Positions 352 through 24,658 of a stretch of 64,000 nucleotides of DNA are shown here, one piece after another. The notes under the pieces are model-generated. The model saw nothing but the letters and a program-made list of their open reading frames with translations, searched no databases and was not told where the DNA came from. Position 1 is the stretch's first letter; every line of letters starts with the position of its first letter. The stretch spans positions 30,446 to 94,445 of the IMG/VR virus record IMGVR_UViG_3300045988_127716, one strand, 5' to 3'. A program made the position numbers and the translations under genes. The DNA comes from a virus.

Positions 352-1066
352 AAAATATGTAAAAGATATTAGTAAATTTCAAATGGGAGGAACTATGAAT
401 GGTTTATCCCCTTTACCTATTTGGAGTTTATTTAAATCTAGTAAAGAAGTTAGGGAAGAACCTAAAAAAGTATCTAAACAACCTCAATTTGAATCTAATA
501 AATCAATCTATGAGGATAAAATTAAATCTAATCCTAAATTTGATAAGAGAATAAATTGGGATAATATAGATTGGCTACAGCAATTTTTTCATAAAAATCT
601 AGGATATAAAACATCCTTAGGAATATTGCCCTCTGTTATTAAAGAAAGTTTTGGAAATCCTAAAATTAAACAGATAGGTGGAGGGCCTGGATATGGACTA
701 TTACAATGGGAGAAAGGATCTGATAGATATAATAGAATGATGAAGTATCGCACTGATAGTATTATTCCAGGAGTAGATCCAGAGCTTCAAAGGCAAGCAG
801 AATTTATTATTAACACTACACTTGACTCTCAGCATCCAGATGATTGGCATCATGGAGGTAAAGGAAGTGGATTTAATACTGCTGAGGATGCAAGAAAAGC
901 TTTTATTAGTAGAAAAAGTTCTGCTGAAGAAAAAGCTTATGCATTGTCTGCTGGATATGTAAGACCCAAAGGAGGATTAAATGAAGCTAAGAGAAGAAGT
1001 AAAATGACACATTCATTAGATTCTTTATATAATAGTAAGTATTTTAAAATGTTAACAAATAAGTAA
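341..1066 (+). CDS. hypothetical protein, possible peptidoglycan hydrolase/tail-lysozyme-like domain
   Basis: 241-aa ORF. GPGYGLLQWEKGSDRY segment recalls phage tail-lysozyme type domains. It sits directly upstream of a holin-like ORF and a GH108 endolysin. Weak call. Confidence 0.3.
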   Translation: MSSEKYVKDISKFQMGGTMNGLSPLPIWSLFKSSKEVREEPKKVSKQPQFESNKSIYEDKIKSNPKFDKRINWDNIDWLQQFFHKNLGYKTSLGILPSVIKESFGNPKIKQIGGGPGYGLLQWEKGSDRYNRMMKYRTDSIIPGVDPELQRQAEFIINTTLDSQHPDDWHHGGKGSGFNTAEDARKAFISRKSSAEEKAYALSAGYVRPKGGLNEAKRRSKMTHSLDSLYNSKYFKMLTNK

Positions 1067-1068
1067 TT

Positions 1069-1263
1069 ATGTTAGGAGGAATAATATTTGTATTCATAGT
1101 TTGGTTTGTCCCTATGATTTTATGGTTGATATTCCAAAATCCATTTAAAAAGAATTCTTCTTGTGAAAATGGTAAAGCTGAGAATAAGTTAGATAAGAAA
1201 ATGTTTTGGGCCGCTTTATCTATTGGTATAGCAATTTTATTAGGAATAATTATATTAGCATAA
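1069..1263 (+). CDS. small two-TM membrane protein, holin-like
   Basis: 64 aa with two hydrophobic helices (IIFVFIVWFVPMILWLIF and ALSIGIAILLGIIILA) and a charged linker. It lies inside the lysis-like cassette. Confidence 0.4.
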   Translation: MLGGIIFVFIVWFVPMILWLIFQNPFKKNSSCENGKAENKLDKKMFWAALSIGIAILLGIIILA

Positions 1264-1264
1264 A

Positions 1265-1942
1265 ATGTCAGAATTAGGTAAGAATTATATAGATGTAGAA
1301 GTAGGAGACAATGATTATGTCTGTAGAGTAGCCTACGATACTTGGGAAAAAGGTAGAGGGCTAATGAATGAGGAGAATCTAGGAGATAATGAGGGGATGC
1401 TATTTATATATGATGAACCTCAAGAAGAGATCTCCTTTTGGATGAAGGATACTCCTTTAGATTTGGATATTGTATTTATATGTCCATGTAAAAAAGTTAT
1501 TTCAGTTGGGCAAGGAATAGCTAATACTACTGATTTAATAACAGAGAATAATGTTCAGTTTGTATTGGAAGTAAAAGCTGGATCAGGAATAAAAGAAGGA
1601 GATGAGGTAGAATTCGATGGGTTAGAAGATTTTATTGAAAATAGAATTGAATCATTACCACAAGAAAATGTTGAAAAAGTTCTTGACTCTGAAAGAGAAA
1701 AACTCTCTGCTCTTCTTAAAGTATTAGATCCTGATGGAGAAGTTCAACTGGTTATAAAAGGAGATGTTAGGATATTCTCTAGAAAAAATACTAAAGTCCT
1801 AATCAGACAAGCTAAGAAAGCTGATAAATTAAAAACTGATTCAGCCTATAAAAGATTAGGAAAATCAATATTTAAATATATGAGAATACAAGATGAGAAT
1901 GGGGAAGAATATGTAAAACCTAATAAGAAGAGTAATGAGTAA
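1265..1942 (+). CDS. hypothetical acidic protein
   Basis: 225-aa ORF, tightly packed (1-nt gap from upstream ORF). No motif recognised. Confidence 0.4.
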   Translation: MSELGKNYIDVEVGDNDYVCRVAYDTWEKGRGLMNEENLGDNEGMLFIYDEPQEEISFWMKDTPLDLDIVFICPCKKVISVGQGIANTTDLITENNVQFVLEVKAGSGIKEGDEVEFDGLEDFIENRIESLPQENVEKVLDSEREKLSALLKVLDPDGEVQLVIKGDVRIFSRKNTKVLIRQAKKADKLKTDSAYKRLGKSIFKYMRIQDENGEEYVKPNKKSNE

Positions 1943-2507
1943 AAAGATAAATCTAATCAATTTAATTCTTGAAGGAGAAGGAGGATATGTAAATGATTCA
2001 GATGATTCTGGAGGAAGAACTTATAAAGGAATCTCTGAAAAGAATTTCCCTAATTGGGAAGGTTGGAATATAATTAATAAGCATGAACCACTGAAAAGAG
2101 GACAAGTGATTAGGGATGAGGATTTAGAGGAAGAAATATATGAATTTTATTTAGTTCATTTCTATTCCAAACTAAAAATAGATCAGATTAATAATTTATA
2201 TATCTCAGCTCATTTATTGGATCATGGAGTTAATGCTGGAATCTCTAATGGTGTTAAATGTTTACAAAGAGCAGTTAATAAAACTTGTCCAGCTAATTTA
2301 TCTATAGATGGTAAAATTGGCCCTAAGACAATCAATGAGGCAAATACTTGTAGTCCCAGAATACTTTTAGATAATTTTATTAAAGAAAGACAAGAATATT
2401 ATAAATCTATTGTAACTAAGAATCCTAAACAAGAGAAATTTTTGAAGGGATGGTTAAATAGAATAGATAATGTAAATAAATATATTAACAATTTAAAAGA
2501 GAAATAA
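1935..2507 (+). CDS. endolysin, glycoside hydrolase family 108 N-terminal domain plus peptidoglycan-binding (PG_binding_3-like) C-terminal domain
   Basis: N-terminus EGEGGYVNDSDDSGGRTYKGISEKNF matches the GH108 signature (EGGYvnDp.D.GG.T..GIt). C-terminal ...DGKIGPKTINEA... resembles the PG-binding domain that accompanies GH108. Confidence 0.75.
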   Translation: MSKKINLINLILEGEGGYVNDSDDSGGRTYKGISEKNFPNWEGWNIINKHEPLKRGQVIRDEDLEEEIYEFYLVHFYSKLKIDQINNLYISAHLLDHGVNAGISNGVKCLQRAVNKTCPANLSIDGKIGPKTINEANTCSPRILLDNFIKERQEYYKSIVTKNPKQEKFLKGWLNRIDNVNKYINNLKEK

Positions 2508-2598
2508 TTATGGCTTGTAAAGGTAGTAAAAAATCTGGATCTTCTAAAGGAAAATCTGGAAAAGGAAGTAAATAATTAATTAATAATTTAAATTAGGT

Positions 2599-3088
2599 AT
2601 GGCAATATATGTAGGAAACACATTAGTTGCTGATGTAGGAGGGGGGGGTAAGCCTCTCTACCTCTACTGCAACTAGATATTTAGTTGGATCGGCTTCTAC
2701 TACAGGAGATACTGAAAATTTGTATACTAATTCTAATTGTTATATGAGTAATAATAATTTATATAGTAATGGTAATAAAGTAGTGACAGAAACTGACTAT
2801 CTTAAATTAGTAGGGGATCATAGGGCAACTGTTAATGGATATATAACATTGGGGAGAATAAAAATTAATTGGGGAACATTATCTATAGGCCCAAATACTA
2901 GAGGAAGCACAAATTTTGCTAGTTCTTTTGGTGGAAATCCTTATACGGCAGTTTGTACATGGGATTATGATGCTTTAGGAGGACAAGAAAATTATGCAAT
3001 TTATCAGTTATCTTCCTCAACAATTTATATTGTTAATGGTGAAGGAACCACCAGATTATTTAGATATATAGCTATAGGTCCAGCATAA
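2599..3088 (+). pseudogene. tail-fibre-like gene split by frameshift at a G8 homopolymer (candidate phase-variable or slippage-expressed gene)
   Basis: ATG 2599 frame (MAIYVGNTLVADVGGGGKPLYLYCN*) stops at 2674-2676. The +1 frame is open from 2639 through the listed ORF 2720-3088 (TTG start only). The two frames overlap exactly at the G8 run 2641-2648; a -1G variant would fuse them. N-terminus MAIYVG resembles MAVYVG of ORF 3729-4598. Confidence 0.5.
2641..2648. repeat. G8 homopolymer tract
   Basis: ggggggggta at 2641-2650. Only long G run seen in this AT-rich window. It sits at the frame junction of the split gene. Confidence 0.9.
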
Positions 3089-3089
3089 T

Positions 3090-3497
3090 ATGAAAATTAA
3101 ATACTCTTCATTGATTCTATTTAAAGGATTTTATGCAATAAATCTTTATGGAACTATGTATATTAGGAAAGAATTTAAAGATAGTCCTTTGAGATTAGAT
3201 GAGTATGATATAAATCATGAAGAAATTCATTCAGCTCAAGCAAGGGACTTCTGTAAGATAAACTGGATAGGATATACTATATTCTATATATTTTATTTCT
3301 TATTCTGGTTAGTAGAATTAGTAAGACCTCCATATGATGAGGCATATCATGATATATGTTTTGAAAAGGAAGCATATATTCATGAGAATAATTTAGATTA
3401 TTTAAAACAAAGAACTAGGTGGTGTTGGTTAAAAGAGAAGTATTGGAGAAATTATGAAGAACCTAGGAAAAATAAGACTAAAAAGTATAATCAATAA
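3090..3497 (+). CDS. hypothetical protein with central hydrophobic segment
   Basis: 135-aa ORF with YTIFYIFYFLFWLVELV hydrophobic stretch. No motif recognised. Confidence 0.4.
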   Translation: MKIKYSSLILFKGFYAINLYGTMYIRKEFKDSPLRLDEYDINHEEIHSAQARDFCKINWIGYTIFYIFYFLFWLVELVRPPYDEAYHDICFEKEAYIHENNLDYLKQRTRWCWLKEKYWRNYEEPRKNKTKKYNQ

Positions 3498-3508
3498 ATT
3501 TAAATGAT

Positions 3509-3727
3509 ATGAATAAAATTAGAGAAATAATTAATAAAATTTTATCTACTAAAGTAGGAAAGTTCTTATTCGAATTTACTAACATGGTTGCATTGATATT
3601 CTTAACTATTTATATGTTTGCACATGTTGAAATTGTTTTTGGAATAATTGCATTATTCTGTGCATTTTCTAATGCTTTAGTATTAGTTGATAAATACTTC
3701 ATTAAGAATAAAAATAAAATAGAATAA
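3509..3727 (+). CDS. small membrane protein
   Basis: 72 aa with two hydrophobic helices. Confidence 0.35.
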   Translation: MNKIREIINKILSTKVGKFLFEFTNMVALIFLTIYMFAHVEIVFGIIALFCAFSNALVLVDKYFIKNKNKIE

Positions 3728-3728
3728 A

Positions 3729-4598
3729 ATGGCGGTATATGTAGGAGCTGATGAATTATCTAAAATATATGTTGGAAATTCTAATGGAAATAGTATTTAT
3801 TTAGGAGATAAAAAGGTTTGGCCTAATTATCCTGATTTAGATCCTATAGTAGCACAGATAACAAAAGATTTAAAAATAGTGCCTATCCATTATTGCAAAT
3901 TTGATGGAAATATAACACAAACTCCTTTACTTATTGATGGAGTTCAAATGAGTCCTATTAACTTTATCAGTACTCCAAACAGTCCTACATATGAAAAAGG
4001 TGTTGGAGGGAGGAAAGCACTGAAATGTAGTTATGTTGATATTTCTTTAGCTCAATTAGCTAAAGCACAACATAGTGTATTCATATCAATGCTAATAAAA
4101 CAAACTACTTCAAATAGTACTTATTCAGGAGTTTTAGGAGGAACTATATTTGGATTAAATACTAAAGGATATGGATATGCTTTAGGATGGGGTCCTAGTA
4201 TACAAAATAATAAAATCTGTGCTGAAAGTTATGCTGGTGGTGCAGCAGCAGCTTCTTATAATACTGTTATGACTGCCAATAAATGGTATCATGTTATGAT
4301 GGAATTTAGAAGTCCAATAACTGCAACAGGAGATGGAACACCAACATCTTTTCTTTCTATAAATGGTTCTGAATTTACTAAAGGTGTTGGAGCAGGTAGT
4401 ATAGGTAGTCCATTAGATTATAGTGATTTATCTAGTGAGCAAGGTGATAGTTACATTCATTTGGGTTGTGTATGGCAGAGTGAAAAAAAATACTTTAAAG
4501 GACTTATTCAAGATTTTGTATTATGGATAGATAACAAACTTACAGATGCTCATGTAGAATTATTAAAAAATTATTATAGAGAACTTGGAGTATATTAA
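3729..4598 (+). CDS. LamG/concanavalin-A-like jelly-roll domain protein, putative tail fibre/receptor-binding protein
   Basis: 289 aa. C-terminal half (…WYHVMMEFRS…SFLSINGSEF…YIHLGCVWQSEKKYFKGLIQDFVLWIDNKLTD…) resembles Laminin_G_3/LamG-like domains common in phage fibres. N-terminus is paralogous to the split gene at 2599. Confidence 0.45.
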   Translation: MAVYVGADELSKIYVGNSNGNSIYLGDKKVWPNYPDLDPIVAQITKDLKIVPIHYCKFDGNITQTPLLIDGVQMSPINFISTPNSPTYEKGVGGRKALKCSYVDISLAQLAKAQHSVFISMLIKQTTSNSTYSGVLGGTIFGLNTKGYGYALGWGPSIQNNKICAESYAGGAAAASYNTVMTANKWYHVMMEFRSPITATGDGTPTSFLSINGSEFTKGVGAGSIGSPLDYSDLSSEQGDSYIHLGCVWQSEKKYFKGLIQDFVLWIDNKLTDAHVELLKNYYRELGVY

Positions 4599-4599
4599 A

Positions 4600-4640
4600 A
4601 TAAAAAAGGACTAATCAATTAAGATTAGTCCTTTTTTGTT
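4600..4640. terminator. bidirectional rho-independent terminator between convergent genes
   Basis: aggactaatc-aattaa-gattagtcct 10-bp perfect stem flanked by A-run upstream and T-run downstream. Confidence 0.7.
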
Positions 4641-4854
4641 ATACTTTTATTTCATTTATTAGATTAGTAGAACAATAAACTTTTCCATTTTTCCACCAAT
4701 CATTCCAATTGCCCGAGCCAGTATTCCAAGGAGTGCTAGTTATAGTGTAGGGTCGACTATTTTTTATATTTATTTGAATATCTATATCTAAATCTTTTAT
4801 ATTACTTAGCTTTTCTAAAGCTTCAGCAATTTCTTTCAATTCACTTATTCCCAT
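4639..4854 (-). CDS. hypothetical protein
   Basis: 71-aa ORF on minus strand, adjacent (2-nt gap) to the coiled-coil gene. Confidence 0.35.
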   Translation of the reverse strand: MGISELKEIAEALEKLSNIKDLDIDIQINIKNSRPYTITSTPWNTGSGNWNDWWKNGKVYCSTNLINEIKV

Positions 4855-14023: not shown

Positions 14024-14110
14024 GCCGAAGTGGTGAAACTGGATATACACGTTAGACTTAAGATCTAATGGTCAGTAATGGCCGTGTGGGTTCGAGTCCC
14101 ACCTTCGGTA
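14024..14110 (+). tRNA. tRNA-Leu(TAA), type II
   Basis: Acceptor gccgaag/cttcggt, anticodon arm ttaga-ctTAAga-tctaa, long variable arm, T-arm gtggg-ttcgagt-cccac. Confidence 0.8.
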
Positions 14111-14163
14111 CACTTTTCTCTTTTATGGATATTTTTCATAAAGGTTAGTATTTAGTGTGTTAG

Positions 14164-14195
14164 GTAAGGAGTAGAAATACTCCTTACTATTTATC
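14164..14195 (+). terminator. hairpin with GNRA tetraloop after tRNA-Leu
   Basis: gtaaggagta-gaaa-tactccttac. The downstream T-run is weak (tatttatc). Confidence 0.45.
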
Positions 14196-14214
14196 AGATT
14201 TAAAATTAAATAAT

Positions 14215-14430
14215 ATGACTTCAGAAATAATTTTATGGATAATCAGTTCTGCATTATTTTTAACTTCAATGCTCATTATAACATTAATACTTGCTGATGA
14301 TAAGATTCTTTCTTCATCACAGCGTGCAATGGGTTGTGTTATACTTTTTGGTGTTACTCTTTTATTCATAATGAGTCTTATTCAAGCAATAAGTTCAACA
14401 ATTGAATTAACAATTCAACAATTGAAATAA
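14215..14430 (+). CDS. small membrane protein
   Basis: 71 aa, two hydrophobic helices. Preferred over the overlapping minus-strand ORF 14187-14369. Confidence 0.35.
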   Translation: MTSEIILWIISSALFLTSMLIITLILADDKILSSSQRAMGCVILFGVTLLFIMSLIQAISSTIELTIQQLK

Positions 14431-14437
14431 ATTATAT

Positions 14438-14510
14438 AGCCTCAAGGTCAAATGGTTAAGATGTCCGACTGTCTATCGGTACGGAGCGGGTTCGATTCCC
14501 GTTGGGGCTG
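14438..14510 (+). tRNA. tRNA-Asp(GTC)
   Basis: 73 nt. Acceptor agcctca/tggggct, anticodon arm tccga-ctGTCta-tcggt, T-arm gcggg-ttcgatt-cccgt. Confidence 0.75.
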
Positions 14511-14515
14511 CATAT

Positions 14516-14590
14516 GTGAAGTTACCAGAGTGGCTTAATGGCTCAGACTGCAAATCTGTTGATTCGGGAGTTCGAATCTCCCACTTCACT
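14516..14590 (+). tRNA. tRNA-Cys(GCA)
   Basis: Acceptor gtgaagt/acttcac perfect, anticodon loop ctGCAaa, T-arm gggag-ttcgaat-ctccc. Confidence 0.8.
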
Positions 14591-14625
14591 CAATATTAAT
14601 TAAAGTTAAATTTAAATTTAAGATT

Positions 14626-15006
14626 ATGTGGTTAATAATTATTTTAGCAGTAGTATTTATTATTTGTGTTATAGGAGCATTTAAGTTAGATGATGATTAC
14701 TTTGGGCTACAAATATTTTGTGGATTTGCATCTTTTGCAACTGGAATTACAATATTAGTGATGTTGTGTAGTATTCCTGGTAATGATTATGAGAAGAAGA
14801 TCCTTCAAAAATCTGAGCTTATCACACTGCAATTAAGTGATACTACTTTATCTAATATAGAAAGATCCATTATTATAAAAGAGGCTATAGAATTAAATAA
14901 TACTTTATTAGATAATAAGGTATATCATAATAATAAACTCTATGGAGTTATTTATTCTGATAAAATTGCAGAAATTCCTTATATTGAATTAAGAAAAGAT
15001 AAATAA
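14626..15006 (+). CDS. membrane-anchored hypothetical protein
   Basis: 126 aa with two N-terminal hydrophobic helices. Confidence 0.4.
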   Translation: MWLIIILAVVFIICVIGAFKLDDDYFGLQIFCGFASFATGITILVMLCSIPGNDYEKKILQKSELITLQLSDTTLSNIERSIIIKEAIELNNTLLDNKVYHNNKLYGVIYSDKIAEIPYIELRKDK

Positions 15007-15060
15007 ATTATTAATCCATTTTAACACAGAGTTTGTAAGTTCTCTAAAAACTTACATTAT

Positions 15061-15143
15061 TCCTCCTTCGCATAGTGGTTGATTGCACTAGTTTTGTAAC
15101 CTAGTCCTGAAAAGGCGCGTCAGTTCGAATCTGACAGGAGGAT
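15061..15143 (+). tRNA. tRNA (type II, 83 nt), anticodon uncertain; anticodon arm has a perfect 5-bp stem with an apparent 9-nt loop ttttgtaac
   Basis: Acceptor tcctcct/aggagga perfect, T-arm gtcag-ttcgaat-ctgac, variable arm about 13 nt, anticodon stem actag/ctagt. Candidate anticodon GTA or TGT depending on loop register. Confidence 0.55.
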
Positions 15144-15177
15144 CAATTAAATAATAACACATTAAATAGATAATATT

Positions 15178-15774
15178 ATGACTAAAGAAGAATATATAGA
15201 ATATCTTGAAAGGAGAAAAGAAGATTTCAAAAGAATGTATCCTTGTATATTATCAATTAAAGAAAAAATTGATATTGTAGAAAGCATTTTAGATACTGCT
15301 AAAACCATCAAAAGAGGAATAGGAAGAGTTTATATTTGTCATGAGTTACAAGACATGAGCACAGAATATAATTTATCCTCTGTAAATATAGGACTTGATG
15401 ATAATGTTTTATTTACAATTCTTGCTAAAAAAGAAGATTTTTGGTATTTACTTGACGAAGGAGATAATGATACTCCTCTTTCTGAAGAAGATGTATTAAA
15501 GAGAATTTTAGAAAAAATTCCTTCTGCAGAATACTTAGAAGATGCTTCCTATTATCAACCTTCTTTTCAATCATCTTATGATATGTTAGAAGATGATTTT
15601 TATGAATTATATGAAGACTCCTCTTCTTTATCAATTATAGCATTAATGCTTCCAGAATTAATGGATTATATGCCTTTAACTCTATGTGAAGATGTAAGTT
15701 ATTTTGATTCTACAGAGGAAAGAATTCAAGCATTAGAAAATATATTACAAGACTTAAAAACACAAATCCAATAG
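15178..15774 (+). CDS. hypothetical acidic protein
   Basis: 198-aa ORF. The overlapping minus ORF 15425-15634 is judged spurious. Confidence 0.4.
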   Translation: MTKEEYIEYLERRKEDFKRMYPCILSIKEKIDIVESILDTAKTIKRGIGRVYICHELQDMSTEYNLSSVNIGLDDNVLFTILAKKEDFWYLLDEGDNDTPLSEEDVLKRILEKIPSAEYLEDASYYQPSFQSSYDMLEDDFYELYEDSSSLSIIALMLPELMDYMPLTLCEDVSYFDSTEERIQALENILQDLKTQIQ

Positions 15775-16072
15775 GGCAGTGAAACTTCATCACTGGTAGA
15801 ATTCTAGTTAAGGGTGGATATTATAATTTGTTCGAAAAATACTAGATATTAGGTTACTTTGGGACTATGTTCAATCTCCTGATTTAACAAGAACTACTAA
15901 CAAAGAATTGAGCCTTAGATAGTGATTTATTTAACATTGACACAGAGATAGTTCATCTATCATAAAGTCCAAATGGTTAGACCATCAGGGATATTAATAG
16001 AGTTAGGCTTTACTCATAGTTATCCTTATGTTAAATAATCTCACTATCTAAGATTATATTAAATAATTAAGT

Positions 16073-16342
16073 ATGGAAATAGATTACAGAAAAGCATTTA
16101 TATCAATGGAGAATATATCAGAATGTGCTTGTAGATTTAAGGCATTTAAGGTATATGATGATTTACAAACTGCATTGAACTTATTAAGAGAATATTCGGA
16201 ATTGATTAGATTTTGCTCTAAATCTTCTAATGTAGAAGAATATGAAAGGCTTAAGAATATTTTTAAATCTCATGTAAATGAAATTAAATCCGATTTTAGT
16301 AGAGCAGAGTTAATTATTAATCTTTATTTTCCTGAAATATGA
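16073..16342 (+). CDS. hypothetical protein
   Basis: 89-aa ORF. Confidence 0.35.
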   Translation: MEIDYRKAFISMENISECACRFKAFKVYDDLQTALNLLREYSELIRFCSKSSNVEEYERLKNIFKSHVNEIKSDFSRAELIINLYFPEI

Positions 16343-16590
16343 TTATTAATTTAGATTACACAGGAAAATCTCTAGAGGAAATATATCGTCCAGATGAAAA
16401 TGATATAATTATTGATAATAACAATAATATTATTCATGAAAAGGAAATAGAAAGAAGTCCAAAAGTTGTCATTAATGGTGTTACATTTTACTATTATAGA
16501 ACATCTAAACTAGCTGAAAAGTTGGCTGGACATAAAGTAACTCTTGAGATTGATATAACTACTAGAAAGTTAGAGTTTATATTTAAATAA
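16339..16590 (+). CDS. hypothetical protein
   Basis: 83-aa ORF, 4-nt overlap with upstream ORF. Confidence 0.35.
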   Translation: MIINLDYTGKSLEEIYRPDENDIIIDNNNNIIHEKEIERSPKVVINGVTFYYYRTSKLAEKLAGHKVTLEIDITTRKLEFIFK

Positions 16591-16702
16591 TATTAAAATC
16601 CTTGTCCAGTACTAATAATTCACTGCAGGATCTGTTATTAATGTCATGGACTAAAGTAATGATGAGTAAGGGATCTCATCTTATCTTTTTACAAAACTTT
16701 AA

Positions 16703-17098
16703 ATGTTTAGCAATTGTGTTAATTTCAAGAAACAGGGTGATGTGGGAATGTGTTATGCTATAGCATATTATTCGAAACTGGGATGGACAATCTCAATTCC
16801 AGTTACTGATTCTCAAGATTATGATTTAATAGTAGATACAGGAACTAAGTTGTTAAAGGTGCAAGTAAAGACTACTACTCAAAAAAGTAATTATGGTGTT
16901 TATATTGCAAATTTAAAAACTTGTGGAGGTAATAGGAGCGGAGACACTATTAAGACCTTTGAAAGTAATCAGTCAGATTTAATATTTATACTAACAGATA
17001 GTGGTGATTGTTATTCAATTCCTAGAGATGCTGTTTCTTCTAAGACTACAATTAATTTAGGCGAAAAAGTTTTAATGTACAAGGTGTCATTATTTTAA
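16703..17098 (+). CDS. putative PD-(D/E)XK-fold nuclease-like protein
   Basis: 131 aa. …DSQDYDLIVDTGTKLLKVQVKTT… is compatible with a D…(D/E/Q)xK restriction-endonuclease-like core. It lies at the edge of the tRNA island. Weak call. Confidence 0.3.
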   Translation: MFSNCVNFKKQGDVGMCYAIAYYSKLGWTISIPVTDSQDYDLIVDTGTKLLKVQVKTTTQKSNYGVYIANLKTCGGNRSGDTIKTFESNQSDLIFILTDSGDCYSIPRDAVSSKTTINLGEKVLMYKVSLF

Positions 17099-17102
17099 TA
17101 AT

Positions 17103-17191
17103 GGGTATGCAGCGACGATGGTGGTGTCGTGCGAGACTGTAAATCTCGTCCCTTAGGGTAAACATTGGTAGTTCGAATCTACCCATGCCCA
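17103..17191 (+). tRNA. tRNA-Tyr(GTA), type II
   Basis: Acceptor gggtatg/catgccc, anticodon arm cgaga-ctGTAaa-tctcg perfect, long variable arm, T-arm ggtag-ttcgaat-ctacc. Confidence 0.8.
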
Positions 17192-17193
17192 CA

Positions 17194-17272
17194 TGCGGGT
17201 GGGTGAAATGGATATATAAATCATTCCAGCCTCATAAGCTGGAGATACTAGGTTCGATTCCTAGACCCGCTA
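17194..17272 (+). tRNA. tRNA-Met(CAT), copy 1 (long D-loop; acceptor register slightly ambiguous)
   Basis: Anticodon arm ccagc-ctCATaa-gctgg perfect, T-arm ctagg-ttcgatt-cctag. Confidence 0.65.
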
Positions 17273-17302
17273 CAAAAGTCACTTACAATACTGCATATTT
17301 AA

Positions 17303-17373
17303 GAACGAATAGCTTAGCGGATAAAGCAATTATCTTCAAATAATAGTTCTGGGTTCGATTCCCAGTTTGTTTA
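17303..17373 (+). tRNA. tRNA, 71 nt, atypical anticodon arm; loop reads cttcaa(a) so candidate anticodon TCA (UGA-reading) or TTC
   Basis: Acceptor gaacgaa/tttgttt (two G-U pairs), D-arm gctt-agcggata-aagc, T-arm ctggg-ttcgatt-cccag. The anticodon stem attat/ataat is perfect only with a 6-nt loop; other registers give a 7- or 8-nt loop with a weaker stem. ACTTACAATA lies 13 nt upstream. Confidence 0.5.
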
Positions 17374-18116
17374 GTAAAATTAGTGACTATTTATATGGGC
17401 TAGTTCTGGCTTTGACAGGTGATTAGAACAGTATTAAGACATGTAGGAAGGCAGTTTCCTTATAAAGGCAAAACTAATAAATGCTAAAGGTAGAGTAATC
17501 TCCTTCTCTAGACCTGCAGCTATTGCAGCGTAAGAGTTGGGTTGTCAACTGACCTAGAAACAGAATAGTTGTAAATATTAAAAAAGGATTGTATTAATAT
17601 AAACAAACCAGAATCCTTGAACCTTAAAAGGTGACAGACCATTGGGTAATTCCATAGGAGCGCTGTTAGGTTTATGAAGTTTCCTTATTCTTTAAAAATA
17701 AGGTGGTGGAGTGGTAATCTACGGTTACCCCAAAGTTTGATAGTTTGTATATACTAGTCATTATAAATACATTGTATTTATTGCACTATTTTAAGAGTTC
17801 TAGTAAAACTATCTATAATTGATCTATGTGATTTATAGATCATAAACATGTATATCTTAATACTAAGTAAATTGTCTGGACCGGAGTTCGACTCTCCGCT
17901 AGTCCACGGGAACAAGTTAGATGTGCTCAGGGGGGATACCCTGAGGGTTAGATAGGGATGGAATCAGAAGTACTAGTCTCCTTCTAGATTGAACCAAGAA
18001 AAGAGTATATAAGCATAGTGGACGCACTAAATTTTGTGAAATTACTCCGCCAAAGAGATTTGGTCTAGTGGCATCTAACTTTTTAAAAATATTAACATTT
18101 TAAATAACAAAACAGT

Positions 18117-18563
18117 ATGGAAAGAATTAACTTCACAGAAGAGAACTTAGCTCAGCTAAAAGATCTTGCAGTAGAGTTCTTATTTAATAGAACTACATTT
18201 AATGGTCCTATGAGTACTCAATATGATGTAACTCAAGTGATACATGACACTACTATGAGTTCTTTAAAGTCTATGTTCAATAGCATTAAATCTGCAATAG
18301 ATAAGAAATCTAATGTAAGTAGATGGACTACTTCAGCTGCAGAACAGAAAGAATTGAAGATTCTTGAGGATAAGAAAGAGTTCTTAGACCTATTAATGGG
18401 ATATAAACTCTATCAAGCTCAGGAAGCTGAAGTTGCTAGAGAAGCAGAAGCTCTTAGAGCTGAGATTAAATCTCTTGAGGAAGATACAAAAACTCCTGAA
18501 GAGAAACTTAAAGAGAAGAAAGAAGCTTTATCTAAGTTAGAGAATTTCTTCAAAATGGTTTAG
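18117..18563 (+). CDS. coiled-coil protein
   Basis: 148 aa; the C-terminal half is heptad-like (AEVAREAEALRAEIKSLEEDTKTPEEKLKEKKEALSKLENF). Confidence 0.4.
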   Translation: MERINFTEENLAQLKDLAVEFLFNRTTFNGPMSTQYDVTQVIHDTTMSSLKSMFNSIKSAIDKKSNVSRWTTSAAEQKELKILEDKKEFLDLLMGYKLYQAQEAEVAREAEALRAEIKSLEEDTKTPEEKLKEKKEALSKLENFFKMV

Positions 18564-18711
18564 GTTTATAAAAACAGTAGCAAGATTATAGTTTACATTT
18601 CTTGCTACTGCATGTTACTTACAATCTAACAAAACTTGTCTGATCTGCAAGTAAAAAAGGATCTCCATAGCTATCATCTTTATTAATAATTAAGTTTAAC
18701 CAAGTAACATT

Positions 18712-20544
18712 ATGAAAGTAGAATTAAATAACAAAGAAACAAATCCTTTTTCTGGGTTAAGAAACTGTTTGAAGATTTTCAACAACGGTGGTCAAGGCAT
18801 CACATTAAGTCAAGATGATTTAAATAAAGCCTGGGAAGAGGTAAAAGATAGTAAAGAGAAGAAAGAGATGTTTTTCTCTCTATTATTCTCATTAGGAGAT
18901 ATTACTGCCAGACAACACAACATCTTTAGAGGTCAAAAAGTTGATTCTGGAGGTAATTCTCAAAGGGAAATCTTTTTCAATTGCATGGAGTGGATGAAAA
19001 AGAATATCCCAGATCAGTTCTTTAAATTCATGAAATCTCATTTATTTAATGAGTATACTTGTTTTGATAATCTATTTAGGAATAGAGTTCAAACTCAGGG
19101 TAAGAAGATTATATCTATTAAATCTGTGTTGAATACATCTGATAATAGATATTTCAATGAGTTATTAGATTACACTGAATCTATTATCAAAGGTAAAAAT
19201 CCTTATGACAAGATGCTTGTAGCTAAATTCTTAACTCTTCCTAGATTATCTCCAAGAAAAGAGCATAAACAAATGCTTCCTCAAACTAAAGAATTGATGA
19301 AAGCAAAGGCTAAATTCTTAGAAGAATTATCTAAGAGAATGAATTGGTCTTATAAAATTGAAGGAAATATACTAAACTTCAAAGGATATAGAGAGTGGAG
19401 GAAGGAATACAACTCTACATTAGAATCTGTTCTTTTCAGTACTGGAAAGATTAAAGATTTTGATGAAATTCAGTTCTTAGAATGGTTGGATAGAATCCCT
19501 GCGCAAGCTAGATTCAGAGTGAGAAACAGAATCATGTTTGAGAAAGAGGGGGTATTTAAATATCCTAAACTGAAAGAGTGGTATGAAAAGTGGGAGAAAT
19601 ACAAAGAAGAGAAACAGGCAGAGCAAAGAGTTCTTGAAGAGAAAGTTCGTCAAGGACAGGCTAGTGTAGAGGATAAAGTTAAATTGGAAAAGGTTAAAAA
19701 AGAAGCCAAGGTAACAGTTGGATCTACTAACTTCCAAGAACTTTATAAAGAGATCCTTAGTGGAAGGATTGATAAACTTAAATTGGAGTCTTTTGTGAAT
19801 AACAAAGTAAGTCTTCAATATAATAGTTTAGTGATTATTGATGACTCTGGATCTATGGGTGGTGCGCCTTTCAACTTTGCTAAATTTATTGCATCTGTTT
19901 GTCTTGTTAAAAATCCAGATGATGATGGAAGAAACCTTTTAGGATTCTTCAATTATGACTCTAGACTATATGGAAGTATGGATAGAGCTGGAAGTAAGAC
20001 TCCTAATAGCTTAATGAGATCAAGTGTGAAGAACATTGTTAAGAAACCTTTTGTAGATCCTCATAAGAGTTTCTATGAAAACTATCAAAACATTTCTTCA
20101 TTCTGCCAAGGTGTATTCCAAGGTGGAGGTACTAGAATAAATAGTATCCCAAAAGGATTTGCTGAACAAGCTAATAATAATCCTGTATTATTAGATGAAC
20201 TTATGCAATATCCAGTTTGGACAATTGTCTCAGATGGAGAATGGAATAATATGTATTCTCCAGAAGCTTCAATGAATGAATTCTTCAGAGATTGTGAGAA
20301 TCTTTTAGGATTTAGACCATTTATCATTGCGATAGATATTCAAAATCCTAATTGGGCACATCAGATATTTAAAGCTGATAGATTTACTGGTATAGATAAC
20401 ATGATCTATATTCCAAGTAACCCAGCTCAAATTGAGCAAATTCTTACAAATTTCAAGGACATTGAAATCTTTGATGTCTATACTCCGTTACTCTCTTTAT
20501 ACAGAAGTAATAGATATGATCTAGTAAGGGCTAATGTAATTTAG
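18712..20544 (+). CDS. vWA-domain protein with large N-terminal domain; hypothesised TROVE/Ro60 (Rsr)-like RNA-binding protein
   Basis: 610 aa. Clear MIDAS motif LVIIDDSGSMGG at about residue 377, the position of the vWA domain in Ro60. N-terminal segments LRNCLKIFNNGGQGITL and EMFFSLLFSLGDI recall Ro60 TROVE segments (…FL.FGSEGGTYY… and …PMLFALA…). Permuted tRNA-like ncRNA candidates lie immediately downstream. The vWA call is firm; the TROVE assignment is inference. Confidence 0.45.
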   Translation: MKVELNNKETNPFSGLRNCLKIFNNGGQGITLSQDDLNKAWEEVKDSKEKKEMFFSLLFSLGDITARQHNIFRGQKVDSGGNSQREIFFNCMEWMKKNIPDQFFKFMKSHLFNEYTCFDNLFRNRVQTQGKKIISIKSVLNTSDNRYFNELLDYTESIIKGKNPYDKMLVAKFLTLPRLSPRKEHKQMLPQTKELMKAKAKFLEELSKRMNWSYKIEGNILNFKGYREWRKEYNSTLESVLFSTGKIKDFDEIQFLEWLDRIPAQARFRVRNRIMFEKEGVFKYPKLKEWYEKWEKYKEEKQAEQRVLEEKVRQGQASVEDKVKLEKVKKEAKVTVGSTNFQELYKEILSGRIDKLKLESFVNNKVSLQYNSLVIIDDSGSMGGAPFNFAKFIASVCLVKNPDDDGRNLLGFFNYDSRLYGSMDRAGSKTPNSLMRSSVKNIVKKPFVDPHKSFYENYQNISSFCQGVFQGGGTRINSIPKGFAEQANNNPVLLDELMQYPVWTIVSDGEWNNMYSPEASMNEFFRDCENLLGFRPFIIAIDIQNPNWAHQIFKADRFTGIDNMIYIPSNPAQIEQILTNFKDIEIFDVYTPLLSLYRSNRYDLVRANVI

Positions 20545-20618
20545 TCCTTACTATTAAAATGACTCAATTATTATAAAAAACAATACAGATACTTACAATA
20601 TTATAAGAATCAATTTAT

Positions 20619-20674
20619 GCAGGTTCGACTCCTGTCTTTTGCATTGGCAGAAGTGGCGAAATTGGTATACGCAC
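20619..20674 (+). ncRNA. permuted tRNA-like module 1 (T-arm, then 3' acceptor strand, tetraloop, 5' acceptor strand, then D-arm); YrlA/Y-RNA-like candidate
   Basis: gcagg-ttcgact-cctgt T-arm (20619-20635). cttttgc-attg-gcagaag forms a 7-bp acceptor-like hairpin. Then tg-gcg-aaattggtata-cgc D-arm-like. ACTTACAATA lies 19 nt upstream. Confidence 0.45.
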
Positions 20675-20779
20675 TGGTCTGAAAAACTGGGGAATATAAT
20701 ATTCAATAGTATCTATTTATGACTTTTCTTTTCCTTGCATGATATATTGATACTTACAAGATCAGACAATCTGTAGGTC

Positions 20780-20837
20780 GAGGGTTCGAATCCTTCAAAT
20801 CGCGCGTTTTGCGAATTTAGCTCAGTAGGTTTAGAGC
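20780..20837 (+). ncRNA. permuted tRNA-like module 2 (T-arm, then acceptor-like hairpin, then canonical D-arm tagctcagtaggtttagagc)
   Basis: gaggg-ttcgaat-ccttc T-arm. aaatcgc-gcgtttt-gcgaatt hairpin with 6 of 7 pairs. Then ta-gctc-agtaggttta-gagc. ACTTACAAGA lies about 20 nt upstream. Confidence 0.45.
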
Positions 20838-20920
20838 AATAGACATTGAAGTATCATTCATATAAGAAAATAATGTTTAGAATAAAAATTATAAAGTCAC
20901 TTACAATATTATCATAATTC

Positions 20921-20994
20921 GTAGAAATAACTCAATAGGATAGAGTACAAAACTTATAATTTTGGTGTTCAGGGTTCAAGTCCCTGTTTTTACA
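20921..20994 (+). tRNA. tRNA-Ile(TAT)
   Basis: Acceptor gtagaaa/tttttac, D-arm actc/gagt, anticodon arm caaaa-ctTATaa-ttttg perfect, T-arm caggg-ttcaagt-ccctg. ACTTACAATA lies 15 nt upstream. Confidence 0.75.
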
Positions 20995-21031
20995 GTGTAA
21001 TTATTATAGTGACTAATTTTATATTTTAAGG

Positions 21032-21133
21032 GGATGGTTTATAACTATTAGTAAATTTATATTTACTTACAAAATCATAAACTGTATGGAAAAATTTACA
21101 CCACAAATGTAGATAAGCAGGTTCGAATCCTGC
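21032..21133 (+). ncRNA. tRNA-like element with ~30-nt insertion (perfect 7-bp long-range acceptor pairing ggggatg/catcccc about 95 nt apart)
   Basis: 5' strand at 21032-21038; T-arm gcagg-ttcgaat-cctgc then catcccc-g. The insertion contains the hairpin agtaaat-ttat-atttact followed by tacaaaatc (the ACTTACAAAATC motif). Confidence 0.4.
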
Positions 21134-21170
21134 CATCCCCGCAAAAGCTACTTACAATAAGATTTAAATT

Positions 21171-21243
21171 ATAACAATAGCTCAATAGGCTGAGCAAATT
21201 TCTGGGGAAAATTAGGTTGTAGGTTCAAGTCCTACTTGTTAAT
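21171..21243 (+). tRNA. tRNA-Pro(GGG)
   Basis: 73 nt. D-arm gctc-aataggct-gagc, anticodon arm aattt-ctGGGga-aaatt perfect, T-arm gtagg-ttcaagt-cctac. Acceptor ataacaa/ttgttaa has an A-A at position 1:72. Motif lies 21 nt upstream. Confidence 0.65.
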
Positions 21244-21277
21244 AAATTTAAAAGTAGCTATTTTTATGAATACTTAA

Positions 21278-21688
21278 TTGGACATTATGTATGATATTAA
21301 TAGAATGAAAGGAGATTTATATGTAAATCATTATCTCTATAAATCTCGTAATGAATACAATCAAATAATTGTATGTGAGATATATAGAGACATTCATGAA
21401 CATATAAATTTCACATTCTATATAACTAGCAAAAGAAAGAGGGGATTTCAAGAAGGAAAGATAACTGGTAAAGATGGAATAAAATCTTTAATATGGGCGA
21501 AAAATTGTCTATTAGATTTTATTAAATATGCTAAACATCATTATCCAAAAGATATTATTACAATTTGGGCGACAGATAAAAGAAGATATAAAGTATATGA
21601 GAGAAGTTTAATTCCATTAGGATTTAAGCATGCAAATGATAGATATAGACATTTTTATCTTAAACTTGATGAATATAGTATAGAATAA
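21278..21688 (+). CDS. hypothetical protein
   Basis: 136-aa ORF embedded in the tRNA island. Confidence 0.4.
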   Translation: MDIMYDINRMKGDLYVNHYLYKSRNEYNQIIVCEIYRDIHEHINFTFYITSKRKRGFQEGKITGKDGIKSLIWAKNCLLDFIKYAKHHYPKDIITIWATDKRRYKVYERSLIPLGFKHANDRYRHFYLKLDEYSIE

Positions 21689-21694
21689 TTAATA

Positions 21695-21808
21695 GGGGAG
21701 GTTGAAATGTTGGAATAAGAGTATCAGTTCATTGTGATACTTACAAAATCAAATTAATTTTCGAATAAATTTGGGTTTTATCTTAACGCAGGTTCGATTC
21801 CTGTCCTC
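21695..21808 (+). ncRNA. tRNA-like element with ~35-nt insertion (perfect 7-bp long-range acceptor pairing ggggagg/cctcccc); 3' part contains a Pro(TGG)-like anticodon arm
   Basis: 5' strand 21695-21701. Insertion has the hairpin agtatca-gttcattg-tgatact followed by tacaaaatc. Then ataaa-ttTGGgt-tttat arm, then T-arm gcagg-ttcgatt-cctgt, then cctcccc-a. Confidence 0.4.
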
Positions 21809-21854
21809 CCCACTACGTTTCGTAAGAGCAAATAGTCAGACACTTACAATACTA

Positions 21855-21927
21855 TAAATTGTAGCTCATTGGGTAGAGCATTTGATTTTTAATCAAAGGG
21901 TAATGGGTTCAAATCCCATCTTAGTGT
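21855..21927 (+). tRNA. tRNA-Lys(TTT), copy 1, with non-pairing acceptor stem as drawn
   Basis: Canonical D-arm tagctcattgggtagagca, anticodon arm tttga-ttTTTaa-tcaaa, T-arm atggg-ttcaaat-cccat. But the 5' strand taaattg does not pair with 3' cttagtg. Motif lies 4 nt upstream. Confidence 0.45.
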
Positions 21928-21939
21928 CTATTTTTAAAT

Positions 21940-22011
21940 TGAGACATCGTATAACGGTTAATACATCAGATTTTGGTTCTGAGAATCTAGGTTCGAATCC
22001 TAGTGCCTCAA
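21940..22011 (+). tRNA. tRNA-Gln(TTG)
   Basis: Acceptor tgagaca/tgcctca (one mismatch), D-arm gtat/atac, anticodon arm tcaga-ttTTGgt-tctga perfect, T-arm ctagg-ttcgaat-cctag. Confidence 0.7.
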
Positions 22012-22101
22012 CATTTATTCTTGTTTATTGTTCCATATGTGTTATTGAATGAGTGTATAGGTAGAAATACTTATACACTCTTTTTATTTAAAATTAGTTA
22101 T

Positions 22102-23553
22102 ATGTTATTTAAGAAAGAATATAAGATAGGAGATGTAGTTACATTTTTCCTTAGAGATGGTAAAGAAGAATTTATTGCCACTTTTAAAGTTGAGCTTGAG
22201 TCACTGCCTACAGTATCATTTTATTATTTAAAAGGATTTACTGAAAAATATGGTGAAGAGTGTGGTAGTCATTATTCCACTTGGAATAAAATTCTTTCCA
22301 TGTATGAAAGTTGGGCAGTACAGGCAAGTGAGAGAACTTTAAAAAATCTTGTTAAAGATTGTCAAGATCAAAAGTCATTCAAATGTAATTGTCCTGAGGG
22401 AAGTATATCACCAGAATTCGCTAATCTGGGAGAGTTAAATGTTTTCATTAGAGCTTTTAGATTATTATTAATAGATAAGTACCTTAATCTTTGTTCTACT
22501 TCAGAATCTATACAAAAATTAATAAGCAAAGCTAATGAAAACTATGAAGAATTTTCCTCAACTATTTACAAAGATGCCTTATCTTATAGTCAGGCAAAGG
22601 AGTATTTATACCGGTATGTTACTTATAAAAATTCCATTCAAGAACAACCTATTAATATAATAGGCAATGGAACAATTACAGCATCTACTATATCTCCTCA
22701 GGAATTTACAATTACTCAAGTTAAGAAAGAAGAAGAAAAACCTATTATAAAAGAAAATTTAATTATGAAAGAAGATGTATTATTCTCAAAAGAAGGAAAA
22801 GAAGCAACTTTTGTAAATCCGTTAAACAATATTTTTGGAAATATGTTCAAAGGTATGAATATGCAAGGAGCTAACATCGAATTTGGGTTTATCCAAGATC
22901 AATCAATTGCTATCTCACCTAAAGGAATCGCATTCTTTGATCCAGAAACTCAAGGATACAAAGCATGGGATGCTAATAATAAAGAGTTAGTAGATATGGG
23001 AACTTTTGCTATGCAAGGTATCTTTATGAAAGTTCCTGTGAAAAGAGAAAGTCTTAAAGAAGGAGATATTCTCCTCATCCAAGATGAGTACAGAATCTTT
23101 GATGGCTTTGCTACTAAGACCATGAAATTGATTAATCCTCTTACAGGAGTACAAACTAATAAACAAAAACAAACTAACATTTTGAATTTTAATGTATTCA
23201 TTAAAGTTGTTTGTGCAATGAATCCTTTTGCTAAAGGAACTATGAATGAATTCATGAAAATTAGCATGATGAGTTCTATGTTTGGAGGTCAAGGAATGCA
23301 GGGAATGTTTGGAGGTAATTGTGGAAGAGATATGGTATCTCAAATGTTCCAACTACAAATGTTAAGTAGTCTTTTTGGAAACGGTAAAGGATTTGATCTA
23401 AATTTCGATATGGATTTTGGATCTGTTTTTGATTCAGTGTTAGGAACTGAAGCTACTGAAGAGTCAGAGTTGAAAAAGAAGCTCAAGGCTCTTGAAAAAG
23501 AAAATGCTAAACTCAAAGCAGCAAAAGAAGAATCTAAAGATAAAGAAGATTAA
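22102..23553 (+). CDS. hypothetical protein with Q/M/G-rich low-complexity region and C-terminal coiled coil
   Basis: Listed ORF starts at 22003 but nt 22003-22011 overlap tRNA-Gln. Internal ATG 22102 (MLFKKEYKIGD…) is preferred. …GQGMQGMFGGNCGRDMVSQMFQLQMLSSLFGNG… then ELKKKLKALEKENAKLKAAKEESKDKED. Confidence 0.45.
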   Translation: MLFKKEYKIGDVVTFFLRDGKEEFIATFKVELESLPTVSFYYLKGFTEKYGEECGSHYSTWNKILSMYESWAVQASERTLKNLVKDCQDQKSFKCNCPEGSISPEFANLGELNVFIRAFRLLLIDKYLNLCSTSESIQKLISKANENYEEFSSTIYKDALSYSQAKEYLYRYVTYKNSIQEQPINIIGNGTITASTISPQEFTITQVKKEEEKPIIKENLIMKEDVLFSKEGKEATFVNPLNNIFGNMFKGMNMQGANIEFGFIQDQSIAISPKGIAFFDPETQGYKAWDANNKELVDMGTFAMQGIFMKVPVKRESLKEGDILLIQDEYRIFDGFATKTMKLINPLTGVQTNKQKQTNILNFNVFIKVVCAMNPFAKGTMNEFMKISMMSSMFGGQGMQGMFGGNCGRDMVSQMFQLQMLSSLFGNGKGFDLNFDMDFGSVFDSVLGTEATEESELKKKLKALEKENAKLKAAKEESKDKED

Positions 23554-23739
23554 GATTTAGATAGGAATAATTTTTATGAAAATTTCTTATAAAATTATTT
23601 GGAATTTGAAAATTATTACCTTATCTTTGTATTCATCTTCGATAAGATAAACTGTTGAAAGGAATTTAATAGTTCTAAGTAAATAAAGGATGAGAGTTTC
23701 ATAAAATATTATCATATTTTACTTTAGATCATCCTAAAT

Positions 23740-23814
23740 GGGTTCTTAGCCAAGTAGGTAAAGGCACCTGACTCATAATCAGGAGATACGCTGGTTCGAT
23801 CCCAGCAGAGCCCA
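23740..23814 (+). tRNA. tRNA-Met(CAT), copy 2
   Basis: Acceptor gggttct/agagccc, anticodon arm cctga-ctCATaa-tcagg perfect, T-arm gctgg-ttcgatc-ccagc. Confidence 0.75.
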
Positions 23815-23824
23815 CATATACTAT

Positions 23825-23897
23825 ATAGGTGTAGTTCAGTTGGTAGAACGCTGCATTTGGGATGCAGAGGCCGCTAGTTCAAGTCTAGTCACCTATA
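23825..23897 (+). tRNA. tRNA-Pro(TGG)
   Basis: Acceptor ataggtg/cacctat perfect, anticodon arm ctgca-ttTGGga-tgcag perfect, T-arm gctag-ttcaagt-ctagt. Confidence 0.75.
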
Positions 23898-23923
23898 CAA
23901 ATTTAACCTAATCCAATTAAATT

Positions 23924-24214
23924 ATGAGATATTTATTCATTTTATTAGTTATCCTATTACTAGGTAGTTGTACAATTTCTCCTAAAAGAGAAGAACCAAA
24001 AACTATAGATTCTAAAATAGAATTAATTACTCCTGATACTTGTTTAGTCAGAATTGATGATGGGATGTTTTATATAACCACTACAAATAATGTAATTATG
24101 TACAAAGCAACTCAATATGATTCTGAATTTTTATCAGTGCCTTTATCTGTGATAATTGCCCTTTCTATTATATTTTTATTTGGACTTGTAGGTTTTATAA
24201 CACTATTTAAATAG
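23924..24214 (+). CDS. small lipoprotein-like/membrane protein
   Basis: 96 aa. N-terminal signal peptide with lipobox-like LLGSC, C-terminal hydrophobic helix. Confidence 0.4.
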   Translation: MRYLFILLVILLLGSCTISPKREEPKTIDSKIELITPDTCLVRIDDGMFYITTTNNVIMYKATQYDSEFLSVPLSVIIALSIIFLFGLVGFITLFK

Positions 24215-24320
24215 AATAATACTTTAAATCCAAGTTGGTGGTAAGGACTTTAACATCACTTTGTACATCATTGTATAATAAACCCATGTGAGTAGTATTT
24301 AAAATGGAGGCTCACAAATT

Positions 24321-24408
24321 GGAAGATTGCTAGAACGGTAATAGAACAGTCTTGAAAACTGATGTAACGTAATCATTCGTTGAGCAGGTTCGACTCCTGC
24401 ATCTTCCT
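24321..24408 (+). tRNA. tRNA-Ser(TGA), type II
   Basis: Acceptor ggaagat/atcttcc perfect, anticodon loop ctTGAaa, long variable arm with aacg/cgtt stem, T-arm gcagg-ttcgact-cctgc. Confidence 0.75.
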
Positions 24409-24419
24409 CATTAAATAAT

Positions 24420-24491
24420 GCTCCAATAGTTTAACGGATAAAACAATTCTCTTCTAAAGAATAAATTCTAGTTCGATTCTAGGTTGGAGTA
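24420..24491 (+). tRNA. tRNA-Arg(TCT)
   Basis: D-arm gttt/aaac, anticodon arm attct-ctTCTaa-agaat perfect, T-arm tctag-ttcgatt-ctagg. Confidence 0.75.
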
Positions 24492-24501
24492 CTAGTTATA
24501 A

Positions 24502-24573: not shown

Positions 24574-24658
24574 CGATTTTACTAAATAAAAATTTTATTA
24601 TAACTTTTCTTGTTATACTTCTATAGTTTCAGTATTTTTGTAGTACAAAATATGTACT

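Follow-up and report, generated by a model that had tools for sequence, protein, structure and literature searches.

Poly-G and poly-C tracts form contingency loci in bacteria such as Campylobacter, Haemophilus, and Neisseria. The locus that we describe here, which lies in a 64,000-nucleotide stretch of viral DNA (the window; positions 30,446 to 94,445 of IMG/VR record IMGVR_UViG_3300045988_127716), shares with those loci a homopolymer in the 5' part of an open reading frame (ORF), changes in one-base steps, and ON (in-frame) and OFF (frameshifted) states in otherwise identical genomes, although in our case the tract is carried by a virus. Its closest analogue is the poly-G phase variation of RBP2 and RBP3 in Campylobacter Fletchervirus phages, which goes along with phenotypically mixed phage populations (Sorensen et al. 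2021, Cell Rep 35:109214; as relayed in PMC8713573 and PMC10877375). As far as those accounts go, the two systems have in common a hypermutable poly-G tract within a phage receptor-binding or fiber gene, ON and OFF states set by frameshift, and an AT-rich genome in which a G run stands out. They differ in that ours belongs to an uncultivated gut phage of ~183 kb with a PolA that shares ~50% identity with that of crAss-like phages, and in that our case for switching and for a phenotype is drawn from metagenome contigs. They also share no sequence homology: a tblastn search with the fused form of our protein against 50,697 GenBank phage records (INPHARED) gave no match at E <= 0.01, and megablast with window positions 1900 to 4700 found none in the same records. 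Therefore, these records hold no annotated cultured relative of the locus and no homology to the Campylobacter phage receptor-binding proteins.

A second set of described loci comes from T2, T4, and other cultured phages, in which ORF homopolymers of at least 6 bases slip at a high rate and produce reversible frameshifts that serve in bet-hedging (Gomez, Barrick & Waters 2025, bioRxiv 10.1101/2025.10.21.683753). Those loci consist mostly of A/T runs, for example in agt and rIIA, and according to that study such repeats are underrepresented in tail fiber genes. Our locus differs from these T-even contingency loci in that it is a single, unusually long G run that sits in a fiber-type gene and has been kept across diverged lineages, and in that OFF is the consensus state in ~45% of the assemblies from natural populations (counted among listed cluster members; see below). 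The literature that we searched did not describe a poly-G switch in any gut phage, crAss-like or other. If our interpretation is correct, homopolymer phase variation of receptor-binding proteins extends beyond Campylobacter phages and laboratory coliphages to a widely sampled, uncultivated gut lineage, and public read sets, longitudinal infant cohorts included, would offer a cheap test bed for phage bet-hedging in the gut.

We consider it likely that slipped-strand changes make this a contingency locus through which an accessory receptor-binding fiber is phase-varied, and that the window carries its OFF allele. The length of the tract is polymorphic at the DNA level, the tract itself is conserved, the ORF that contains it is under purifying selection, and its product shows homology, at the level of profiles, to the tips of fibers.

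An earlier note on this DNA, made from the letters of the window, had placed a G8 homopolymer exactly at the frame junction of a split, fiber-like gene, and this arrangement is confirmed (Table 1). The note had also called it the only long G run in the window; it is indeed the sole run of G or C of at least 7 bases in the 64 kb, where the G+C content is 29.6% and the next longest such run is a G6 at 17930. A lone G8 is not improbable by itself, since 14 of 100 dinucleotide-preserving shuffles of the window contain at least one G8 or C8. The weight of the tract comes instead from its position and from its behavior across related genomes. The single protein of about 163 aa that had been predicted to follow from the loss of one G is likewise confirmed as an ORF, with 162 aa encoded by G7 (the window's G8 minus one G) and 163 aa by G10 (plus two G's). 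One statement has to be corrected, namely, that the downstream ORF has no ATG: an in-frame ATG lies at 2744, and from it gene finders call a 114-aa protein on OFF alleles of relatives. Residues 1 to 13 of the fiber-like protein form an N-terminal beta-strand motif that is kept in relatives (MAIYLGNELIADV, MGAIYLGSKLIASL, MPGIYIGGELIANV), and the 3' part of the gene in the window is free of any second lesion. The predicted junction peptide of the fused protein is MAIYVGNTLVADVGGG(G)V(S/N)LSTSTATR.

Table 1. Coordinates of the fiber-like gene, its parts, and other features of the window
Feature	Position	Strand	Remarks
GH108 + PG_binding_3 endolysin-like gene	1935..2507	+	immediately 5' of the fiber gene; same neighbor in relatives
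Very basic 21-aa ORF	2510..2575	+	MACKGSKKSGSSKGKSGKGSK; spacer between the GH108 gene and the fiber gene
Whole fiber-like gene, probably phase-variable	2599..3088	+	here the frameshifted, OFF G8 allele
5' segment, G8 state	2599..2676	+	ATG 2599; 25 codons, MAIYVGNTLVADVGGGGKPLYLYCN; stop TAG 2674-2676
3' segment, +1 frame	2639..3088	+	open from 2639 to TAA 3086-3088
Poly-G tract, G8	2641..2648	+	GGA just before; codons 14-17; Gly linker
Foot-type lectin domain, Gp53-like_C / R-pyocin (putative)	residues ~72-162 of the window protein	+	profile matches
HExxH (HEEIH) protein, 135 aa	3090..3497	+	phrog_15610 'protease', E 1.5e-24
Laminin_G_3-like protein, 289 aa	3729..4598	+	PF13385, E 2.4e-4, below cutoff
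Terminator-like hairpin, bidirectional	4599..4640		end of the gene block
tmRNA	17397-17909	+	Rfam RF00023, 51.5 bits (gathering score 47); tag peptide VNIKKGLY* by ARAGORN

We read the tract directly in the DNA of 20 near-identical contigs from different samples, the window included, and found 11 of them in frame and 9 out of frame. The out-of-frame lengths were G6 (L002), G8 (the window and L011), and G9 (L003, L004, L005, L018, L019, and L020), and the in-frame tracts were G10 (L001, L006, L017, L021, L025, and L026), G10 directly after GTA (L008 to L010), GGAGGAG7 (L015), and G6AG3 (L007). The runs behind these contigs include ERR14673552 (G10), ERR15003919 (G6), and ERR10422953 (G8). Loci were fetched in three ways: via proteins, by scanning IMG/VR and JGI metagenomes for a sequence pattern, and via an invariant neighboring gene. 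Those fetched via full-length proteins are ON by construction; the pattern scans and the neighbor-gene look-up, which make up a small but unbiased subset, gave four ON and three OFF loci in addition to the window.

Both of the flanking haplotypes that we distinguished, TAAAC and TAAGC, carry G9 as well as G10, and the changes in length are therefore recurrent. Over 3.4 kb, L026 (a 37.5-kb contig from run SRR31145596) differs from the window in having G10 instead of G8 and in one SNP, at 2975, and is identical to it elsewhere, including in the A8 run at 4483 to 4490. Given this near-identity, the split state of the window represents a very recent change of the tract in a gene that is otherwise intact. 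Across 12 loci aligned over window positions 443 to 3709, all indels outside the tract are multiples of 3, and the A6 and T6 runs are constant; the G tract alone varies. Thus, the phase variation of this gene that the earlier note had suspected is supported by a tract whose length is polymorphic among near-identical genomes and which is kept in diverged ones.

A search with the fused protein against 5.8 billion proteins returned 14 matches. Relatives do not simply carry separate small ORFs that are never fused; fused forms of 161 to 164 aa are common among them, since 10 of the 14 matches are full length (161 to 166 aa, 60 to 98% identity; P0001 to P0004, P0007 to P0011, and P0013). Three further matches (P0005, P0006, and P0012) are 114-aa proteins beginning at the residue equivalent to M49, and the last, P0014, is a partial form of 100 aa. 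One cluster member has been named 'putative tail fiber protein' by NCBI.

We counted contigs over seven 90%-identity clusters, using the listed members only (15 out of as many as 46), and these contigs do not count as independent samples. Among these listed members, intact forms of 161 to 164 aa occur on 117 contigs and the truncated 114-aa call on 97, so that OFF is the consensus state of ~45% of the 214 classified contigs, and the ON share is above the one-third expected from random frames. Both states occur, again among listed members, in five sequence lineages, which include each larger lineage and one at 70% identity, and the 114-aa call is found on contigs of about 185 kb as well. The glycine runs of the 117 listed full-length proteins (GGGG in 61, GGG in 39, GG in 7, GGE in 6, GGGR in 3, and GGGGG in 1) imply tract lengths from G4 to G13. 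At all five loci with a 114-aa call (P0005, P0006, or P0012) that were read in DNA, the call results from a frameshift at the tract; for the remaining 114-aa members, we take the frameshift from the protein call. With tract lengths in all three frames, the comparison with related genomes that had been proposed for this locus favors phase variation. In one lineage (P0140/P0141), the longest ON contig (162 aa) has 184,866 bp and the longest OFF contig (114 aa) has 184,867 bp, a one-base gap as expected if the whole genomes differ solely at the tract.

The counts and the near-identical contigs also bear on the simplest alternative, a homopolymer sequencing or assembly error, by which the true window would have G7 or G10, the gene would be intact, and G8 would be a mistake of the consensus. 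Tracts of 8 to 10 G's are a difficult context, and poly-G is error-prone for Illumina sequencing. Several of the related contigs have a coverage of 1 to 5x by their names, and the closest relative, L026, is just the G10 sequence, otherwise identical bar one SNP, that such an error would predict. However, out-of-frame lengths make up ~45% of more than 200 contigs (listed members), and these come from varied assemblers and archives (Logan, ENA metaSPAdes/MEGAHIT, IMG/VR, and NCBI). The affected contigs include ones of about 185 kb, the lengths span G4 to G13, and the other homopolymers in the same loci keep their length. A mistake of this kind could have produced the G8 of the window but not the pattern seen across the locus, and we judge it improbable. 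These observations carry a warning for annotation, in that OFF alleles are given a 114-aa 'hypothetical protein' and quality filters may flag the G tract as an assembly error.

In the contingency locus that we favor, slipped-strand mispairing during replication of the phage DNA would add or remove G's at codons 14 to 17. Lengths of 3n+1 after the GGA (G4, G7, G10, and G13) would give the intact protein of 161 to 164 aa, and other lengths would end translation after 16 to 25 codons; the G6 and G9 alleles run straight into a TAA, and G8 reads 25 codons. The G8 of the window would then be an OFF allele of very recent origin from a G10 or G7 ON allele, or one with a future reversion to it. Since slippage of the G count would move the gene between ON and OFF, phage populations would be mixed, or would alternate, between particles with and without the fiber. 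We infer both the replication slippage and its reversibility within a lineage from the contig comparisons, and the tract is presumably copied by the phage's own proofreading family-A polymerase.

It is also conceivable that the split form is itself the designed one, with the full protein made by +1 or -1 ribosomal frameshifting or by RNA polymerase slippage. G GGG GGG is slippery in principle, and the TAA directly after the run in the G6 and G9 alleles is a context that can favor shifting. Such programmed recoding should require a conserved frame offset, yet relatives are in frame, +1, or +2, and about half of them (listed members) need no recoding at all. Nor did we find a stimulatory RNA structure 3' of the tract, as the 82 nt downstream (window positions 2649 to 2730) fold at -11.7 kcal/mol, no better than shuffles (z 0.18). 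The programmed slippage that had been suggested alongside phase variation is therefore not borne out, given the varying offset and the lack of a downstream structure, and we hold it to be even less probable than error. OFF alleles of the contingency locus may be leaky through slippage of RNA polymerase or of the ribosome.

The tract is retained at the DNA level despite the codon usage of the phage. In the 43 other ORFs of the window, GGG makes up 8.9% of the Gly codons, and the pair GGG-GGG is found at none of the 37 Gly-Gly dipeptides; GGG GGG GGG G is still spelled in L014, L016, and L024, which have 60 to 73% aa identity to the window protein and dS values of 0.58 to 1.33 against the window. 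Maintenance of the tract is not universal, since the run is interrupted in two lineages, by a T in L012/13 (G5TG4) and by an A in L007 (G6AG3). We considered whether such interrupted, or "locked," tracts are always in frame and dropped this idea, as those loci were fetched via full-length proteins and are ON by construction. Between the window and the diverged members, dN/dS across the fused ORF is 0.19 to 0.40. The whole ORF is thus under purifying selection, which fits a working gene and not a decaying one.

A decaying pseudogene, in which a dispensable gene is being lost and the tract is merely the breaking point, would accord with the large share of OFF alleles (97 among the 214 contigs classified from listed members) and with a gene that has no known function, but it is the least probable of these alternatives in view of the dN/dS of 0.19 to 0.40 across lineages, OFF alleles without a second lesion, a G tract kept against codon bias in diverged lineages, and an ON state commoner (listed members) than the one-third expected from random frames. 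Even so, the OFF share of ~45% could also arise without an adaptive switch, if the gene is dispensable and drifts at a hot spot for mutation.

The identity of the phase-varied protein was addressed through profiles. The window protein alone reaches 16.4 bits (E 0.013) against Pfam PF21882 (Gp53-like_C), below the cutoff of 24.9, and its relative P0010 has PF21882 on record. A profile of the family matched 112 proteins among 1.84 billion representatives. The final ~90 query residues pair with the very C-terminus of these proteins, which include ones of 1882 (the longest), 1527, and 1037 aa; in nearly all 112, the alignment stops at most a few residues short of the end of the protein. PF21882 scored above its cutoff in all 10 of the profile matches that we scanned, among which one, also one of the three long proteins just named, has phage-fiber repeats (Phage_fiber_rpt) and one a BppL_N baseplate-protein motif. 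Against the PDB, a deeper profile (A3) matched the C-terminal part of the R2/R1 pyocin fibers (6CT8, E 6e-9; 6CL6, 1e-8; 6CXB, 1e-6), and a shallow one (A1) gave only noise (E 0.47). AlphaFold2, run on a 10-sequence alignment, produced a poor model (mean pLDDT 50), whose best PDB matches in Foldseek were again 6ct8, 6cl6, and 6cxb, weakly (E 3.7e-3, TM 0.34); our conclusions were drawn without this model. The fused protein had no match in PHROGs. The tail-fiber-like identity that had been read from the window is thus supported at the level of profiles, by PF21882 in 10 of 10 scanned matches and by the three pyocin structures.

In R-pyocins, the 'foot' is a distal, trimeric, discoidin-like domain of lectin type that resembles gp53 of Acinetobacter phage AP22 and is proposed to be the primary sugar-binding domain, with the sugars of LPS as its targets (PMC6363177). 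Our protein resembles the R-pyocin foot and AP22 gp53 (6CT8, 6CL6, 6CXB, and 4MTM; PF21882) in its C-terminal ~90 aa, with the E of 6e-9 given above, and in the position of the domain, which lies at the C-terminus in every case. It differs from the R-pyocin fiber in being just 162 aa long, without the long shaft or the head or knob domains, and the window sequence taken alone falls below the Pfam threshold; a trimer and sugar binding are here putative. We conclude from these sequence comparisons that the product is probably a short fiber or receptor-binding protein, composed of a beta-strand motif, a linker of two to five glycines, and a lectin-type tip, and we infer receptor binding, along with a role in bet-hedging.

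The fiber gene stands in a block whose gene order is kept in close relatives. On its 5' side, a lysozyme-like gene and a DUF192 gene precede the GH108/PG_binding_3 endolysin-like gene. The 21-aa ORF that follows is kept in nine related loci, where its changes are mostly synonymous, and this conservation suggests that it is translated. In L015, the A6 run of this small ORF is A5, which would shift its frame. On the 3' side lie the HExxH protein, a 72-aa ORF, the Laminin_G_3-like (LamG) protein, and a strong bidirectional terminator. The HExxH protein starts 1 nt after the stop of the fiber gene, has a hydrophobic stretch, and adjoins or sits near the fiber gene in L001 and in the diverged L014 and L024. 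Translational coupling with the switch gene is possible, and the protein may serve the fiber as a partner or in its maturation. A promoter scan was at background, with 17 found and 16.6 expected.

The LamG protein, which had no match in PHROGs, is possibly a second fiber-like protein of the same gene block. Its N-terminal motifs are MAVYVG, KIYVGN, and SIYLGD, and its N-terminus is conserved in relatives. The match between MAIYVG of the fiber gene and the N-terminus of this protein, to which the earlier note had pointed, stands as a motif, with five of six residues agreeing (MAIYVG/MAVYVG), but not as a statistically weighty similarity (BLASTP E 0.66). A longer motif, (I/V)Y(V/L/K)G...(V/I)WP, recurs in the LamG protein (SIYLGDKKVWP) and in a 185-aa protein of L024 (L024 1143-1700), and the switch gene shares just the (I/V)Y(V/L)G part of it. 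The motif is possibly a shared docking element, although at that BLASTP E the match is weak. L024 (IMGVR_UViG_3300045988_105375) also has a second long G run, an intergenic G9 at 1102-1110, that lies 33 nt 5' of the ATG of the 185-aa protein, which begins MAINIGS...AIYKGDTLIWP. This G9 may be a second poly-G switch, one that acts on expression rather than on frame.

A bolder version of the contingency locus can be built from these neighbors. In it, the locus would have evolved as a bet-hedging switch in a phage that is prevalent in the human gut, and it would decide whether the lectin-foot fiber (2599-3088) or the LamG protein (3729-4598), which would share an N-terminal (M)A(I/V)YVG docking motif, decorates the virion; receptor use would track the phase-variable surface polysaccharides of the host, and OFF alleles would perhaps be rescued in part by RNA or ribosome slippage, so that the switch doubles as a dosage rheostat. 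We regard this full version as speculative and rather unlikely, though less so than any of the alternatives weighed above.

Contigs of this uncultivated phage reach about 183 to 186 kb. Its PolA is a proofreading family-A polymerase (PF00476 + PF01612) that shows ~50% identity to the enzymes of cr108_1, IAS virus, and Bacteroides crAss phages, and it alone is clearly related to crAss-like phages. The helicase matches unclassified fecal phages only, and a 610-aa ORF had no match. None of the structural hallmark genes of crAss-like phages (capsid, terminase, virion RNA polymerase) was found in the window. A 652-aa upstream protein of L017, a terminase according to PHROGs, was rejected as such since it resembles RecB/Cas4-type exonuclease-helicases instead. 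The size of ~183 kb, the ~27 tRNAs, the polA gene, and the ~30% GC resemble the 'zeta' crAss-like genomes tabulated in PMC12386605. Judging from the fecal source of the nearest database phages, the phage probably comes from the human gut. We found no relatives of the locus in 185,579 bacterial and archaeal genomes, and these genomes therefore provided no prophage copy and no clue to the host.

The tmRNA lies within the block of ~27 tRNA genes, at 14024-29304. Near it is an odd tRNA (17303-17373), for which ARAGORN was unable to assign an anticodon; a further tRNA match, a partial one, lies at 21861-21920. Farther along, the window encodes a 608-aa protein with an SPFH/flotillin domain (31092-32918, + strand) and adjacent nicotinamide phosphoribosyltransferase-like and NAD synthase genes (40629-42751, + strand), which are possibly an NAD+ salvage pair.
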